Part shown: piece by piece, positions 128 through 8,656 of the stretch | How positions within the stretch are numbered: position 1 is the stretch's first letter | How the letters are laid out: each line of letters begins with the position of its first letter | Virus record (IMG/VR): IMGVR_UViG_2667527608_000007 | Length of the DNA: 9,003 bases | Origin: a virus | Taxonomy: Duplodnaviria; Heunggongvirae; Uroviricota; Caudoviricetes | Direction: 5' to 3' (one strand) | Translations under genes and position numbers: made by a program | The notes under the pieces: generated by a model | The model's input: the letters and a program-made list of their open reading frames with translations, nothing else | Told to the model about the DNA's origin: nothing | Database searches by the model: none

Positions 128-772
128 AATACAGGGTTACTGATAGTGACACCAATTTCAAAACAACCTTCAGACGTATTAACGTTTGGTAATAACGTTT
201 CCATTATCGCGTCCTCAACAATGAATTTTGTGATGCAGTGCCTGGTGCCTCCAGGTGACGTTAACCAGTTAACAATTAACGCCGGATACAGAGAATCCAA
301 CCATAACACTGTTTTTGGTTTTAACTGTTCCGCGTGCGCTTAGCCGCATTCACCGCATCACAAAATTCACTTTAAAAAGGGCGGCAGAGCAGTCACGGAG
401 TAAAACTGATACCGCCAAACGTCACCAGAAAATTGATAACAGAGGGCGTTGCAGCGGGGTTGTCACTTAAGCGTATGGTCAACCTGACAACCCGGTGTCC
501 TCAACGGGGGAAGGAATAACCCCGCCATACTTACCGCCGCGCCATTTCGCGGATTGCCACAACCGGAAGCGCACGGTCGACGAAAATTTAACGACAGGCT
601 ATCTATGAACCAGCTACCTCGCCGTGCGCTTTCGCGTTATGGTCTGACTTTTCAGGGAAATATCCTTTCAGTAAACTGTCAGTGCCGGATGCTCACCCGT
701 GTCCGGCGCAAGCACTCCACCTCACCCGTGGAGAACTCCTTAATTACCAACCTTAGCTTCGTTGGTTAGCTA

Positions 773-2958: not shown

Positions 2959-2980
2959 AAGCACGGTGTTCGGGGGTTTT

Positions 2981-3943
2981 ATGAGCAGCAAGCTTCATGG
3001 TCTTGTCTGGGAAGGGTGCGCCTTCACCGGCATGATCTTATCCAGGGTGGCGGTTATGGCCCGTCTTGCAGACTACAGCAATGACGAGGGCGTGTCATGG
3101 CCTGCCATTGAAACTATCCGGCGTCAGATCGGTGCAAGAAGTGAATCCACAGTGAAATCGGCTATTGCAGAACTGGCGAAAGAGGGCTGGCTGACGAAGG
3201 AAGAGCGTAAGGTCGGTGGGCGTAATGTAAGCAATATCTATCGGCTTAATGTGGAAAAACTCGAAGCAGCTGCGGCGGCGGCGCGTGAGTCATATAAACC
3301 GAAAAGAAAAATTAGCCCGGCAAAAAATGACCCGTTAACAGTTGACCCGTCAAATATTGACCCCTCAACGGTTGACCCGTCAAATTTTGATGGATCAACT
3401 GTTGATAAAAAACTGCCGATTAGGGGGGCGATGATTGACCCCGATCCGTCAGTATTAAAACCTGATCCGTCAGATAAAAGATCTTCTTGTCCGGACGCTT
3501 CGCAACCGGACCCGCAGACGGCTGAACAGGATTTTTTAACCCGACACCCTGACGCGGTTGTGTTCAGTGCGAAAAAACGCCAGTGGGGAAGTCAGGAAGA
3601 TTTGGTGTGCGCACAGTGGATCTGGGGACGAATCGTGAGTCTTTACGAGCAGGCGGCCAGCGATGATGGCGAGATCACTAGACCGAAAGAACCCAACTGG
3701 ACAGCATGGGCCAATGACGTTCGCACAATGCGGATGCTGGATGGCAGAACTCACAGACAAATTTGTGAAATGTTTGGGCGTCTCCAGCGGGATTCGTTCT
3801 GGGTAAAAAACATCATGAGTCCGGCAAAACTCCGGGAAAAATGGGATGAACTGGTTATCCGCCTGGGGCGTTCGCCTGCGCAGCGTTGCGTGAATCACAT
3901 TTCTGAACCGGACACTGAAATACCGCCGGGATTCAGGGGGTGA
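2981..3943 (+). CDS. Lambda-O-like replication initiator (320 aa from ATG 2981): winged-helix N-terminal domain, repetitive linker, C-terminal domain
   Basis: N-terminal HTH/winged-helix region (ARLADYSNDEGVSWPAIETIRRQIGARSESTVKSAIAELAKEGWL). The linker DPLTVDPSNIDPSTVDPSNFDGSTVD is encoded by the tandem 15-bp iterons. Lies immediately upstream of the DnaC-like loader. The ORF track's 2966 start is a GTG extension. Confidence 0.7.
   Translation: MSSKLHGLVWEGCAFTGMILSRVAVMARLADYSNDEGVSWPAIETIRRQIGARSESTVKSAIAELAKEGWLTKEERKVGGRNVSNIYRLNVEKLEAAAAAARESYKPKRKISPAKNDPLTVDPSNIDPSTVDPSNFDGSTVDKKLPIRGAMIDPDPSVLKPDPSDKRSSCPDASQPDPQTAEQDFLTRHPDAVVFSAKKRQWGSQEDLVCAQWIWGRIVSLYEQAASDDGEITRPKEPNWTAWANDVRTMRMLDGRTHRQICEMFGRLQRDSFWVKNIMSPAKLREKWDELVIRLGRSPAQRCVNHISEPDTEIPPGFRG
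3328..3417. repeat. Tandem 15-bp iterons (about 6 copies, consensus TTGACCCGTCAAnnn), putative prophage origin of replication inside the initiator gene
   Basis: Copies start at 3328 (ATGACCCGTTAACAG), 3343 (TTGACCCGTCAAATA), 3358 (TTGACCCCTCAACGG), 3373 (TTGACCCGTCAAATT), 3388 (TTGATGGATCAACTG) and 3403 (TTGATAAAAAACTGC). Degenerate GAYCCGTCAG copies follow at about 3436-3475. Each core TGACCCGTCA is internally near-palindromic. Confidence 0.7.
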
Positions 3944-5501: not shown

Positions 5502-5897
5502 ATGGCGAAACCTTTTACACACGAACAGCGTGAAGAACTGAAGGCCCGAATTATCGGGCTGGTACGCAAAAATGAACGCATGACGATATCACAACTGGAG
5601 AGAGCGACGGGAGCAGGCTGGCATTCAGTCAGACGTTGCCTTGTGGATGTACTGGCTTGTGGCGATTTATACATGCCCGGTAAATACGGTGTTTTTACAT
5701 CAGAACAGGTGTATCGCGTATGGCGTAAGGCAGCGGAGAAAGCAACCGACCAGACATTGATTCGAAAGTTACCAGACGGAGAAATACGCCGCTACGACAG
5801 ACAACAGAACATAATCTGTGGCGAGTGCCGGAAGAGTGAAGTTATGCTGCGTGTACTGGCGTTCTATCAGGGCAATTTTCAGGAGGCGGTACTGTGA
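5502..5897 (+). CDS. Hypothetical protein (131 aa), possible HTH near the N-terminus
   Basis: Intact ORF tightly packed with its neighbours (stop overlaps the next start, GTGA); segment MTISQLERATGAGWHSVRRCL looks HTH-like. No family recognised with confidence. Confidence 0.5.
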   Translation: MAKPFTHEQREELKARIIGLVRKNERMTISQLERATGAGWHSVRRCLVDVLACGDLYMPGKYGVFTSEQVYRVWRKAAEKATDQTLIRKLPDGEIRRYDRQQNIICGECRKSEVMLRVLAFYQGNFQEAVL

Positions 5898-6538
5898 GTG
5901 AATTAGCTATCAGGCTTCAATTGTCGCTGGCATTCGCATCAAAGGAGAATGAGATGATCACTTTTACAAAAGAGCAGTTAATCAGTCATGTTAGTGAAAA
6001 TGTAAAGGCGATGAAATTTGCAGTAAAACAGACAGTATTCAAAAATTCTCTCGAGGCAATTGAGTTGGATTTAGCACTGGCCCTTGTTGCTCAGGCTTCG
6101 CTGGAAGCAGAGCCCGTGCTTTATATGAATCGATTTACCGGAAAGACATTCTCACTGGAAGAGCAACCCGGTGCTGATAAGGAACCGGAAATATACGTGC
6201 CGCTATATGCTGCCCCGCCAGACAGCGCCGCCATGCTTCAGGCTGGAAACTTTCGGGAAAATAAGGGTTCGTCAACCAATAATTTTCGGGAAATCTCGGA
6301 AACGTCAACCAACTATCCGGTAACTCCGGATGGTTGGATAAGCTGTAGTGAGCGAATGCCGGATGATGGTCAGCACGTAATTATTTTATGTGATGGCGCA
6401 TTCGTTCTTTATGCGCAATATCGAGACGGTGAGTTTTTTGATGTAGTCCGTAATGGTGATGAATTTTTCGAAACACAGAGCCGCAATGTAACCGACTGGA
6501 TGCCGCTACCAGAACCGCCGCAGGAGGTGCGCCAATGA
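5894..6538 (+). CDS. Hypothetical prophage protein with C-terminal DUF551-like domain (214 aa from GTG 5894; alternative ATG at 5954)
   Basis: C-terminal segment DGWISCSERMPDDG...TDWMPLPEPP is typical of DUF551 phage proteins. AGGAGG at 5881-5886 precedes GTG 5894; AAGGAG precedes ATG 5954. Confidence 0.6.
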   Translation: MSELAIRLQLSLAFASKENEMITFTKEQLISHVSENVKAMKFAVKQTVFKNSLEAIELDLALALVAQASLEAEPVLYMNRFTGKTFSLEEQPGADKEPEIYVPLYAAPPDSAAMLQAGNFRENKGSSTNNFREISETSTNYPVTPDGWISCSERMPDDGQHVIILCDGAFVLYAQYRDGEFFDVVRNGDEFFETQSRNVTDWMPLPEPPQEVRQ

Positions 6539-6618
6539 TCTGGCCTGAAGCCTTTGCAATTACAGGCGTTGCTATAGCTATTGATTTTTTAGTATATGTT
6601 ATTTGTCGGTGGGGGTAA
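6535..6618 (+). CDS. Micro-ORF, 27 aa predicted single-TM peptide (MIWPEAFAITGVAIAIDFLVYVICRWG)
   Basis: Perfect AGGAGG at 6522-6527, 7 nt before the ATG, which overlaps the upstream stop (ATGA). Hydrophobic core of about 18 residues. Below the ORF-track cut-off. Confidence 0.4.
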   Translation: MIWPEAFAITGVAIAIDFLVYVICRWG

Positions 6619-6653
6619 AAACGTTCGCCGGGATTCACACCAAAGGAGGGAAT

Positions 6654-6758
6654 ATGTCGGATGATATTTCACTGGCAATGGAAGGTGCTCTGGCTGTTAT
6701 TGCTGTTGTGGGCGTTTACTGCCTGGTTGTGTTTTTGATGGATCGACTAGGGAACTGA
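6654..6758 (+). CDS. Micro-ORF, 34 aa predicted single-TM peptide (MSDDISLAMEGALAVIAVVGVYCLVVFLMDRLGN)
   Basis: AAAGGAGGG at 6642-6650 immediately upstream of the ATG; about 22 consecutive hydrophobic residues; below the ORF-track cut-off. Confidence 0.45.
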   Translation: MSDDISLAMEGALAVIAVVGVYCLVVFLMDRLGN

Positions 6759-6766
6759 ATTCATTA

Positions 6767-6788
6767 CGATATGGGAATTCCCATATCG
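6767..6788. promoter_or_regulatory. 22-bp perfect palindrome CGATATGGGAATTCCCATATCG, 13 bp upstream of the predicted hok promoter -35
   Basis: Exact dyad symmetry read from the sequence; no T-tract follows, so it is not a classical intrinsic terminator. Confidence 0.5.
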
Positions 6789-6800
6789 GGTAAAAACGGT

Positions 6801-6828
6801 TTGCGGTAAAGCGAGAGTTAAGTAGAAT
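6801..6828 (+). promoter_or_regulatory. Putative promoter of the mok/hok mRNA (-35 TTGCGG 6801-6806, 16-bp spacer, -10 TAGAAT 6823-6828)
   Basis: It sits just upstream of the 5' element (6833-6846) that is complementary to the mRNA 3' end, giving a transcript of about 420 nt ending at the terminator at 7254. Confidence 0.45.
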
Positions 6829-6889
6829 TGCTGCGGGTGCTTGAGGCTGTCTGCCTCGGGCATGCCACCGTAAGGCAGACAGAGAAAAG

Positions 6890-6955
6890 CCCCAGTTAAC
6901 ATTACGCGTCCTGCAAGACGCCTAACATTAATCTGAGGCCAATTTCATGCTAGAC
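6890..6955 (-). ncRNA. Putative Sok-like antisense RNA overlapping the mok translation-initiation region (predicted from a promoter only)
   Basis: Minus-strand -35 TTGCCT (6990..6985), 17-bp spacer, -10 TAACCT (6967..6962) would start a transcript antisense to the mok ribosome-binding site (GAGG 6934-6937) and start codon (6947). The 3' end is not defined. Confidence 0.25.
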
Positions 6956-7159
6956 ATATGTAGGTTAGCCTCTTACGCGCCGAAAGGCAAGGAGAAGCAG
7001 GCTATGAAGCAGCAAAAGGCGATGTTAATCGCCCTGATCGTCATCTGTATCACCGTCATAGTGACGGCACTGGTAACGAGGAAAGACCTCTGCGAGGTAC
7101 GAATCCGAACCGGCCAGACGGAGGTCGCTGTCTTCACAGCTTACGAACCTGAGGAGTAA
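6947..7159 (+). CDS. mok: Mok-like reading frame (70 aa), in frame with and containing hok
   Basis: MLDICRLASYAPKGKEKQAMKQQ... closely parallels my recollection of E. coli MokC (MLNTCRVPLTDRKVKEKRAMKQH...), where mok is an in-frame N-terminal extension of hok. GAGG ribosome-binding site 9 nt upstream. Confidence 0.6.
   Translation: MLDICRLASYAPKGKEKQAMKQQKAMLIALIVICITVIVTALVTRKDLCEVRIRTGQTEVAVFTAYEPEE
7004..7159 (+). CDS. hok: Hok/Gef-family type I toxin (51 aa)
   Basis: MKQQKAMLIALIVICITVIVTALVTRKDLCEVRIRTGQTEVAVFTAYEPEE is near-identical to my recollection of HokC/Gef and HokD/RelF. AAGGAG ribosome-binding site at 6988-6993; single TM helix; conserved Cys and the RTGQTEVAVF motif. Confidence 0.9.
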   Translation: MKQQKAMLIALIVICITVIVTALVTRKDLCEVRIRTGQTEVAVFTAYEPEE

Positions 7160-7228
7160 GAGACCCGGCGAGGGAGAAATCCCTCGCCACCTCTGATGAA
7201 TCAGGCATCCTCAACGCACCCGCACTTA

Positions 7229-7254
7229 ACCCGCTTCGGCGGGTTTTGTTTTTT
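7229..7254 (+). terminator. Rho-independent terminator of the hok transcript (stem ACCCGC/GCGGGT with TTCG loop, then T-run)
   Basis: ACCCGCTTCGGCGGGTTTTGTTTTTT read directly. An additional perfect 9-bp hairpin with GAAA loop (GGCGAGGGA-GAAA-TCCCTCGCC) lies at 7167-7188, just after the hok stop. Confidence 0.7.
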
Positions 7255-7606: not shown

Positions 7607-8656
7607 GTGCGGGTATTACTTCGACCTGTTCTGGTACCGGAACTCGGTCTGGTTATCGTTAAGCCAGGCCGTGAATCAATGTCAGCATTCCATAACGGCA
7701 GAATACTGGTGGAGCCGGAACCAAAAAGCATGCGAGCTCTGCCGTCCGGGGTTGTACCTGCCGTTCACCAGCCGCTGGCGGAAGATAAATCACTACTGCC
7801 ATTTTTCAGCGATGAGCGGGTGAGCCGTGCTGCGGGTGGCGCTGGTGCACTGTCTGACTGGTTATTACGTCACGTGAAATCCTGCCAGTGGCTACACGGT
7901 GATTATCATCACAGCGAAACCGTCATTCACCGTTACGGTACCGGCGCAATGGTGTTGTGCTGGCACTGCGACAACCAGTTGCGTGACCAGACATCCGAAT
8001 CACTCGAGCAACTTGCTCATCAAAACCTGTCAGCATGGATGATTGACGTCATCGGTCACGCAATAAGCGGTACGCAGGAGCGTGAATTATCTCTGGCTGA
8101 ATTATCCTGGTGGGCGGTCCGCAATCAGGTGGCGGACGCGCTACCGGAAGCGGTATTACGTCGTTCGCTGGGGTTGCGTGCGGAAAAAATCCGCTCCATG
8201 TACCGTGAAAGCGACATCGTACCGGGAGAGCAGACCGCCACCAGCATACTGAAACAGCGCACAAAAAATCTTGCGCCGCTGCCTCACGCCCACCAGCAAC
8301 AGAACCCACCACAGGAAAAGACGGTGGTCAGCATTGCCGTTGATCCTGAGTCTCCGGAATCTTTCATGAAACGACCTAAACGTCGCCGCTGGGTTAACGA
8401 GAAATACACTCGCTGGGTGAAGACACAGCCGTGTGCGTGTTGTGGTAAGCCAGCCGACGATCCCCATCACCTGATTGGTCATGGTCAGGGCGGAATGGGG
8501 ACAAAATCTCACGATATTTTCACGCTACCGCTGTGTCGGGAGCATCACAACGAGCTTCATGCGGATCCGCTGGCGTTCGAAGAAAAGCATGGTTCTCAGG
8601 TTGATTTAATTTTTCGTTTTCTTGATCACGCCTTTGCAACTGGCGTGCTTGGGTAA
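7607..8656 (+). CDS. ydfU: DUF968/YdfU-like prophage protein with C-terminal HNH-like Cys/His motif (349 aa from GTG 7607)
   Basis: C-terminal CACCGKPADDPHHLIGHGQGGMGTKSHDIFTLPLCREHHNELH. Size matches Qin YdfU as I recall it. GGAGG lies only 4 nt upstream of the GTG, so the start is uncertain (alternative ATG at 7679). Confidence 0.65.
   Translation: MRVLLRPVLVPELGLVIVKPGRESMSAFHNGRILVEPEPKSMRALPSGVVPAVHQPLAEDKSLLPFFSDERVSRAAGGAGALSDWLLRHVKSCQWLHGDYHHSETVIHRYGTGAMVLCWHCDNQLRDQTSESLEQLAHQNLSAWMIDVIGHAISGTQERELSLAELSWWAVRNQVADALPEAVLRRSLGLRAEKIRSMYRESDIVPGEQTATSILKQRTKNLAPLPHAHQQQNPPQEKTVVSIAVDPESPESFMKRPKRRRWVNEKYTRWVKTQPCACCGKPADDPHHLIGHGQGGMGTKSHDIFTLPLCREHHNELHADPLAFEEKHGSQVDLIFRFLDHAFATGVLG

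Follow-up and report, generated by a model that had tools for sequence, protein, structure and literature searches.

The palindrome and its genomic setting

The 9,003-nt stretch of DNA analysed here, to which we refer as the window, belongs to the IMG/VR record IMGVR_UViG_2667527608_000007 and comes from a lambdoid prophage of Shiga-toxin-producing Escherichia coli (STEC). Between two micro-open reading frames (micro-ORFs) and the hok/sok locus of this prophage lies a 22-bp perfect palindrome, whose origin and possible role are the subject of this report (Table 1). For the window itself our result is a modest one, as the palindrome is very probably a leftover of a deleted gene for a KilA-N-domain protein. 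Beyond the window, a large share of KilA-N genes, in many bacterial phyla and in giant-virus metagenome-assembled genomes (MAGs), carry such a palindrome, which selection maintains as DNA.

Table 1. Features of the window around the palindrome and along the early region
Feature	Position	Strand	Description
DicF antisense small RNA	379-430	-	Rfam RF00039, 76.7 bits; adjoins dicB/ydfC-type genes of the leftward early operon
RacR-type repressor and YdaT			After DicF in window order
O-like replication gene	2966-3943		Followed by a DnaC-like replication gene
DUF551 gene	5894-6538		Upstream of micro-ORF1
micro-ORF1	6535-6618	+	27 amino acids (aa); homologue in 933W-type loci directly adjoins the hok promoter
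Direct repeat GGGTAAAAACG, left copy	6613-6623	+	Read from the sequence, compared with the 933W arrangement
micro-ORF2	6654-6758	+	34 aa, hydrophobic; RefSeq WP_001278450.1
Probable KilA-N gene remnant	6756-6791	-	~36 bp; D-M-G-I-P-I-S-stop-stop-I-Q against DMGIPISELIQ in the intact gene
Perfect palindrome CGATATGGGAATTCCCATATCG	6767-6788	strandless	22 bp; 11 + 11 nt, full complementarity, spacer 0
Direct repeat GGGTAAAAACG, right copy	6788-6798	+	Left boundary of the conserved hok module, and the junction on the remnant's right side
Inferred hok promoter	6801-6828	+	TTGCGG 6801-6806, 16-nt spacer, TAGAAT 6823-6828
hok/sok locus	6835-7159	+	Rfam RF01794, 114 bits; ORFs; RefSeq hokD
hok mRNA leader and Sok target	6835-7009	+	Rfam match span
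mok	6947-7159	+	ORF
hok	7005-7159	+	ORF
Terminator downstream of hok	7228-7245		Terminator scan
DUF968, RusA, Q			Further downstream of hok/sok

An earlier note on this DNA, made from the letters alone, had pointed out a long exact dyad beyond what chance would produce, and our analysis agrees. The palindrome is the only perfect one in the window with arms of at least 7 nt, the runner-up measuring 12 bp, and a perfect palindrome of 22 bp or more arose in 0.13% of 1500 first-order Markov simulations of the window. No second copy was found in the window with up to three mismatches allowed, and no further copies or operators in 87 kb of prophage and surroundings with up to four. An operator of the prophage's own repressor or Cro, as in a RacR-type immunity region, was rejected because it would need repeated copies and only one exists, the immunity region included. 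The palindrome is flanked by GGTAAAAACGG on the plus strand and TAATGAATTCAG on the minus strand, there is no T-run beside it on either strand, and the terminator scan made no call there. A Rho-independent terminator, which needs a G+C-rich hairpin and a U-tract, is thus excluded by the absent U-tract, as the note had anticipated. An arm-swapped form of the palindrome is exemplified by CGAAACGGGAATTCCCGTTTCG.

The 311-bp segment around the palindrome is identical in E. coli 2011C-4251, and 672 of 5426 complete E. coli genomes have related copies that cover at least 80% of it. A host repeat of the repetitive extragenic palindromic (REP) or bacterial interspersed mosaic element (BIME) kind was rejected, the segment being present at 1-5 places per genome; among the matches listed for it, all 40 of 40 places have the same hok-region context. 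The two GGGTAAAAACG copies bracket micro-ORF2 and the palindrome; compared with 933W, the 175 bp so enclosed appear to have been inserted.

A probable remnant of a deleted KilA-N gene

A sister prophage in E. coli 95NR1 encodes RacR, YdaT, O-like (WP_000095671.1) and DnaC-like (WP_000788938.1) proteins identical to those of the window. Exactly between its DUF551/micro-ORF1 block and hok, it carries on the opposite strand a 257-aa KilA-N gene (WP_000200358.1). Pairwise BLAST aligned window positions 6756-6791 to this gene with 32 of 36 identical nucleotides (E = 2e-8), colinear with the 3' end of the DUF551 gene, micro-ORF1 and hok; in the orientation opposite to the 95NR1 gene, the match was limited to a 23-nt palindrome. 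The palindrome itself is identical, with 11 of 11 pairs, to nt 174-195 of the E. coli KilA-N gene (L512), and the adjoining 15-nt flank scored as KilA-N-like in a position-weight-matrix test both in the window (p = 0.017) and in the variant named PPompW (p = 0.007). Related loci form a graded series from the full gene (L512) through ~70 nt (L055 and L024, whose relics read ISRLTQSVKAP and ISGLI*PVK) and ~36 nt (the window and PPompW) to ~22 nt or slightly more (L121). In the window no KilA-N open reading frame is left, only 36 nt with stop codons, and micro-ORF2, which has no Pfam or PHROG match, sits where the 3' part of the lost gene would have been. Searches of the remnants with the KilA-N protein by tblastn gave only short and weak extensions past the palindrome, so that the assignment is based on the nucleotide match together with synteny. 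From these we consider it very probable that the palindrome is an orphan, part of some 36 bp left over from a deleted KilA-N gene with a BstA-type C-terminal domain.

We also considered whether the right flank is a KilA-N relic, as 'DMGIPIS-GKNGL' matches a Calothrix KilA-N protein. This was rejected because loci without the palindrome have AAAACGGTTTGCGG as part of their hok module, and because IMG/VR yielded no enterobacterial KilA-N gene encoding SGKNGLIQ.

The parent protein WP_000200358.1 has a canonical N-terminal KilA-N domain (Pfam PF04383, E = 4e-27) and matches over its full length PHROG 6287, 'BstA abortive infection system' (E = 2.7e-89). Its residues 119-238 match the PADLOC model for BstA, and its identity to BstA of prophage BTP1 is 32%, in the C-terminal domain only. 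A second E. coli allele of this architecture, with the centre GGGGATTCCC, was seen in a DLP12-like prophage of strain elppa10 (L513 8223-9729), directly downstream of a cI-like repressor, which is the position of bstA in BTP1 and of rexAB in lambda.

The KilA-N box within KilA-N genes

We use the name KilA-N box for a 22-bp dyad with the centre GGAATTCC and C-G/G-C ends, located in KilA-N genes ~15 codons ahead of their (Q)GTW(V)HP motif. The window copy shares the dyad, the centre, the ends and the descent but not the location inside such a gene, and we therefore class it as an orphan or remnant box.

The 18-mer core of the box was found in at least 120 IMG/VR contigs, about one third of which have it in surroundings that have nothing to do with hok. 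Of 28 such hok-free settings, 22 have a symmetry that continues for 2 bp or more beyond both ends of the core, where chance predicts 1 in 16. The 22-mer, with R/Y at its two central variable positions, is present in at least 80 species-representative genomes against ~0.1 expected, spread over Nostocales, Saprospiraceae, Firmicutes, alpha-, beta- and gamma-proteobacteria, Dehalococcoidia, Spirochaetia, Verrucomicrobia, Planctomycetes and Saccharibacteria. Around half of these copies lie within KilA-N genes and encode D-M-G-I-P-I-S, and KilA-N genes of giant-virus MAGs likewise have a 22-bp GGAATTCC-centred palindrome at the same position. A degenerate scan for DMGIPIS in any codons returned palindromic codons almost exclusively, at ~90% of such sites, and a chance coincidence of codons was rejected on this ground.

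To avoid ascertainment bias, KilA-N genes were also sampled by the unrelated motif QGTWVHP, which gave 76 distinct upstream sequences, 46 of them with a G-[IVLYM]-[PS] motif. Perfect 22-bp palindromes occupy 17 of these 46 motif sites with 12 different sequences, for example CGATACCGGAATTCCGGTATCG (DTGIPVS), CGAAACCGGAATTCCGGTTTCG (ETGIPVS), CGTTGCGGGAATTCCCGCAACG (VAGIPAT), CGATGTCGGAATTCCGACATCG (DVGIPTS) and GGAAACGGGATATCCCGTTTCC (ETGYPVS). Pairing is partial at others, with 10 of 11 positions in 13 sites and 9 of 11 in 10, and ~40% of the sampled genes have no box. Covariation links the third position of the Pro codon to that of the codon two places upstream, which implies that synonymous sites take part in the pairing. 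Over 42 distinct sites, 89.8% of the cells are paired and double-sided changes occur in 8 of the 11 pairs (65 cells). The covariation score of 0.381 compares with 0.151 in shuffles, none of 500 reaching 0.381, and with at most 0.078 when the partners were slid. Among the cells outside Watson-Crick pairing, G-U combinations are not enriched (13 versus 47 others), and the central AATT is conserved; we rejected an RNA-specific signal because of this lack of G-U enrichment and the conserved 'loop'.

KilA-N genes of Saprospiraceae, Haliscomenobacter and Aureispira contain the identical 22-mer at the homologous position but in another reading frame, where it encodes R-Y-G-N-S-H-I, or RYGDSHI when the centre is GGGGATTCCC (L184, L192, L194, L207, L209, L232, L237 and L257). 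Their products are KilA-N proteins by Pfam (E = 1.8e-19). Since one and the same 22-mer is used in two frames, what is conserved is the nucleic acid, as DNA or as transcript, rather than the peptide. The compensated pairing and the double use of the reading frame show that the box in KilA-N genes is under selection at the nucleotide level. A simple insertion of the box into KilA-N genes was rejected, as box-free KilA-N proteins have an equal segment length. Our literature searches on the sequence, the peptide, and KilA-N combined with palindrome, inverted repeat or stem-loop returned no description, and the KilA-N box family appears to be undescribed.

Two further observations concern the encoded segment. 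Two or three tandem boxes were seen inside KilA-N coding sequences of giant-virus or jumbo-phage contigs (L108 3239-3302 and L524 ~1940-2021), reading DMGIPIPG...DMGIPIS and KGIPVF..GMGIPID..ETGIPVS. Residues 56-62 of the E. coli KilA-N protein, SRDMGIP, which overlap the box heptapeptide DMGIPIS, fall in a 7-residue gap of a weak alignment (E = 0.27) to the APSES domain of Mbp1 (1bm8), and would thus resemble an insertion between two helices relative to APSES.

Boxes outside KilA-N genes

Stand-alone boxes recur in defined settings. Many enterobacterial prophages have a non-coding nin-region module of ~65 nt, composed of a stop codon, CCATACAAGC, the box, GAC(A/C)GCC and the intrinsic terminator AGGGCCTCTTCGGAGGCCTTTTT, which follows the stop codons of unrelated ORFs (L169 6050-6125, L157, L177 and more than 40 other IMG/VR contigs). 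The module occupies the slot that hok has in the window, between DUF551-type early genes and ninB/dinI/rem/rusA/DUF968/Q, and its right arm is better conserved than its left. Among GenBank phages the nin module is essentially absent, the sole match being phage Over9000, through the box.

Over9000 is one of the virulent Dhillonviruses, about half of which carry the box in a 54-bp indel made of TAG, the box and a duplicated 29-bp repeat; HK578 (L434) and SO-1 (L435) lack this indel. The indel lies in an iteron- and AT-rich region adjoining the helicase-primase gene (L433 2480-2535 in Over9000), which contains TGTCCCGC iterons, an AT-rich stretch and GGCAACCAATGCGCGC repeats, and no KilA-N flank accompanies the box there. 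The Dhillonvirus box adjoins the right-hand copy of the duplicated repeat, much as the window box stands beside the right GGGTAAAAACG, and in CEC_Kaz_2018 it is degenerate (TGGGGATCCCCA).

Arrays of two to six GGAATTCC-centred palindromes with differing arms, spaced 20-110 bp apart, were found in L204 (2530-2705), L255 (1935-1996), L258 (1486-1730), L245 (4445-4500) and L233 (~7860-7990). The overlapping units in L245 create a 36-bp palindrome. Some of the arrays have ParB-like or tyrosine-integrase genes as neighbours, namely a ParB-like gene and an integrase in L204/L255 and an integrase in L258. A tyrosine-recombinase core site of the 8-6-8 layout was also considered for the box: the arrays of L255 and L258 adjoin integrase genes, but GAATTC at the centre is symmetric, and no pair of attL and attR sites came to light. 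Orphan boxes of a second arm type, CGAAACSGGAATTCCSGTTTCG, also exist.

In-frame boxes were also observed in unrelated proteins. In phage-like Firmicutes contigs (L185, L200 and L105), the box encodes DMGIPIS or DMGIPIL at the start of a low-complexity linker in proteins with an AAA_24 (Sak4-like) ATPase domain, and further in-frame copies lie in a 748-aa ORF (L196) and a 1988-aa ORF (L224).

Relation to hok/sok

The palindrome is the immediate neighbour of hok/sok, and both occur together in the 672 E. coli genomes mentioned above. The earlier note had placed it 13 bp upstream of the -35 element of hok, which fits the 12-nt gap that we measured to the inferred promoter; this promoter was located by the conserved TAGAAT just upstream of the Rfam match, the consensus scan making no call. 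We sampled hok loci by the promoter sequence alone, and the inferred promoter is conserved in all of them. Of the contigs sampled, ~39% have the perfect box, ~10% a variant whose left arm has lost 1 nt, and ~51% no box at all. The sequences upstream of hok fall into several types. In type A (933W), a micro-ORF1 homologue runs directly into the promoter and the palindrome is absent, whereas type B, that of the window, has micro-ORF2 and the palindrome. Type C has a micro-ORF2 homologue against a different -35 and no palindrome. The PPompW type combines the palindrome with an unrelated paa/adfO moron, and the L024/L055 type has yet another left flank. The homology of the hok module, shared by 933W and many other phages, begins at 6788-6792 with GGTAAAAACGG, just past the palindrome.

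The note had proposed that a dimeric prophage or host regulator binds the palindrome and thereby controls hok. The perfect dyad symmetry and the short distance to the inferred -35 would suit such an operator. Against it stand the roughly half of hok loci that do without the palindrome, a spacing to the -35 that changes from 12 nt in the window to ~38 nt in L024/L055, and the position outside the hok module; neither the immunity region nor the rest of the prophage has another copy. A variable presence and spacing of this kind is not the behaviour of an operator or insulator of hok. The note had also suggested a search for the same palindrome elsewhere, and the outcome argues against a role in hok, as copies are numerous across phyla in contexts free of hok. 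A component of hok/sok itself was likewise rejected, since the palindrome lies outside both the conserved module and the Rfam model, whose match starts at 6835. Control of hok through the palindrome is therefore extremely unlikely. The comparisons show that the symmetry was inherited from the KilA-N gene and not built for hok, and we infer that the palindrome has no part in hok/sok control. For annotation, the palindrome should be treated as a gene remnant and labelled neither operator nor terminator.

Possible function and alternative explanations

BstA is a prophage-encoded abortive-infection protein that blocks phage DNA replication, and a cognate DNA element within the bstA locus, aba, neutralises it for its own prophage (Owen et al. 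2021, PMC8585504). In prophage BTP1, aba comprises 63 bp across the bstA start codon, with terminal CCCGCC direct repeats; it acts as DNA rather than as RNA or peptide, is cognate-specific and works better in many copies (PMC8585504). The KilA-N box resembles aba as a short DNA element inside a prophage abortive-infection locus with a KilA-N or KilA-N-like N-terminal domain, and the parent of the window remnant has a BstA C-terminal domain. The box differs in that it is also found in KilA-N genes whose C-terminal domains are of many other kinds, ANT/KilAC among them. We rejected an identity of the palindrome with the mapped aba, as the 63-bp sequence is absent, the position in the gene is another, and a palindrome takes the place of direct repeats.

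The KilA-N protein is the only factor common to all box hosts, and the box is most simply seen as its cognate site. It might be a double-stranded DNA site, possibly an extruded hairpin, bound by dimers of the DNA-binding KilA-N domain. By analogy with the self-immunity that aba confers on BstA, the KilA-N protein would then recognise its own encoding replicon via the box. An orphan kept after loss of the gene could still bind or titrate the KilA-N proteins of co-resident or resident prophages, and would thus serve as an immunity decoy. In this respect the earlier proposal of a site for a dimeric protein holds in part: the most plausible ligand is still a dimeric DNA-binding protein, but without any tie to hok. 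The BstA/aba precedent, a cognate DNA off-switch that works best in many copies, would fit arm variants as specificity types, the arrays, and the acquisition of the box by virulent phages near an origin-like region. Orphans that were retained or acquired are suggested by the stand-alone nin copies, the Dhillonvirus indel, the arrays, the second arm type and the near-invariant box of type B.

The whole chain, from the remnant origin through the cognate KilA-N site to the orphan as immunity decoy, is in our estimate a good possibility that falls a little short of being probable. More doubtful, and only a tentative proposal, is the wider generalisation in which the box would be a cognate KilA-N site in its own gene and a self-marker of the replicon, with arm variants as specificity types. 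BstA/aba self-immunity would then extend to the KilA-N proteins of phages and giant viruses, and the orphans in hok loci, nin regions, Dhillonviruses and arrays would be anti-defence decoys. The box is a concrete candidate for the DNA target of the KilA-N domain and offers an experimental handle on KilA-N specificity and BstA-like self-immunity. As the parent gene belongs to the BstA family with its DNA self-immunity, the box and its orphans may form a general layer of self-marking and decoys in conflicts between phages.

Several observations weigh against this reading. The bstA gene of BTP1 has no GGAATTCC palindrome, and the E. coli BstA that was tested is of the 298-aa BTP1-like type (PMC8585504). 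Further, aba spans 63 bp across the start codon, whereas the box measures 22 bp at codons 58-65. The graded deletion series was ascertained through a palindrome search, by which fragments without a palindrome were missed. No intact KilA-N gene lies within 8 kb of any of ~40 stand-alone genomic copies, and there is none elsewhere in the window prophage, where the box is moreover single. The E. coli KilA-N allele is scarce, being found in 137 of 5426 genomes against the 672 with a hok-linked box. One hok-linked lineage has the 1-nt left-arm deletion, as expected of a decaying relic, and nin-module copies, sampled by their terminator alone, have uncompensated single changes, mostly in the left arm.

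The main alternative is that the window palindrome is a pure scar, a non-functional leftover that is still intact because the deletion was recent or because palindromes tend to be end-points of deletion and recombination. The well-supported gene-remnant origin, the two stop codons already in the flank and the location of all rearrangement junctions near the palindrome speak for a scar, as do the missing and scarce KilA-N genes and the arm mutations just listed. On the other side, the box has no changes in 22 nt relative to the intact allele and the adjacent 10 nt have two. Its arms were called invariant across 30 type-B haplotypes, in which the box shows one central change and one 1-nt deletion only and the adjacent spacer is variable. 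Virulent Dhillonviruses carrying the box free of any KilA-N flank, multi-copy arrays and orphans of other arm types do not suit a scar either. We regard it as a realistic explanation, though on balance not the probable one.

Compatible with both the decoy and the scar is a role as a recombination joint, in which the palindrome, through a cruciform or hairpin or through 22 nt of shared identity, would be a hot spot of exchange at module borders that shuffles KilA-N domains and morons, with no dedicated binding protein. In hok loci, no fewer than four different left flanks and two right ones meet directly at the box or no more than 15 nt from it, and direct repeats bracket the inserted segment both in the window (GGGTAAAAACG) and in Dhillonviruses (29 bp). 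KilA-N gene fragments are frequent in Nostocales, and KilA-N is a member of the domain-swapping 'Bro network' (PMC10111431). However, the single-stranded DNA folds with only -7.6 kcal/mol (a 9-bp stem with an AATT loop), 22 bp are short for the extrusion of a cruciform, and the box has a central position in the KilA-N domain rather than one at a domain border. The compensatory upkeep across phyla implies selection for the site itself, beyond a mere hot spot, and we find a joint of this kind improbable as the explanation. Still less probable is an RNA hairpin in the early rightward transcript, which would act after micro-ORF2 as a 3' stabiliser, a processing site, as the earlier note had envisaged, or a weak attenuator insulating the hok promoter from read-through. 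The palindrome begins 8 nt past the stop codon of micro-ORF2, the RNA of 6740-6815 folds with -22.4 kcal/mol (z = -3.4), and in other prophages the box follows a stop codon and precedes an intrinsic terminator by 8-10 nt. Against a hairpin, there is no U-tract, the box has no Rfam match, either in the window or in the nin module, with a cut-off as loose as E <= 5, G-U pairs are not in excess, the would-be loop AATT is conserved, and arm mutations in stand-alone copies are uncompensated. Both orientations relative to transcription occur, and the window copy comes from a gene on the opposite strand. These points leave the RNA reading very unlikely, and the processing hairpin is not borne out.

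Comparison with other embedded and junction sequences

Sites acting in cis can be embedded in the gene of the very protein that uses them, as with the lambda origin inside O and parS inside spo0J/parB. The KilA-N box is similarly a DNA site within a coding sequence, where it constrains codon choice. Those sites are, however, origins or centromeres with known ligands, whereas the box recurs in many phyla and is used in two reading frames. Short conserved boundary ('linker') sequences were reportedly described at the mosaic junctions of lambdoid phages by Juhala, Clark, Hendrix and colleagues. The box is comparable in that it lies exactly at module junctions of the nin region, with neighbours differing between phages. 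It differs from linkers in being a perfect palindrome that is identical to an intragenic element of unrelated viruses, beyond the gene boundaries of lambdoid phages.

Additional observations

Two contigs of an Alcaligenaceae MAG (L216 and L250) have the box at positions 23-44, at their starts, followed by GCGGGTTCGAGTCCCGCGGGCGGC, and diverge beyond it. The sequence GCGGGTTCGAGTCCCGCGGGCGGC resembles the T-arm and the acceptor 3' strand of a tRNA, although ARAGORN identified no tRNA; the box at these contig starts may be a repeat or an attachment-site junction at which the assemblies break. In the window, the O-like gene contains at 3337-3403 an imperfect inverted repeat of 33 + 33 nt made of TTGACCC..TCAA units, which encodes the repetitive peptide PLTVDPSNIDPSTVDPSNFDGSTVD, and these units are probably the origin iterons of the window prophage.

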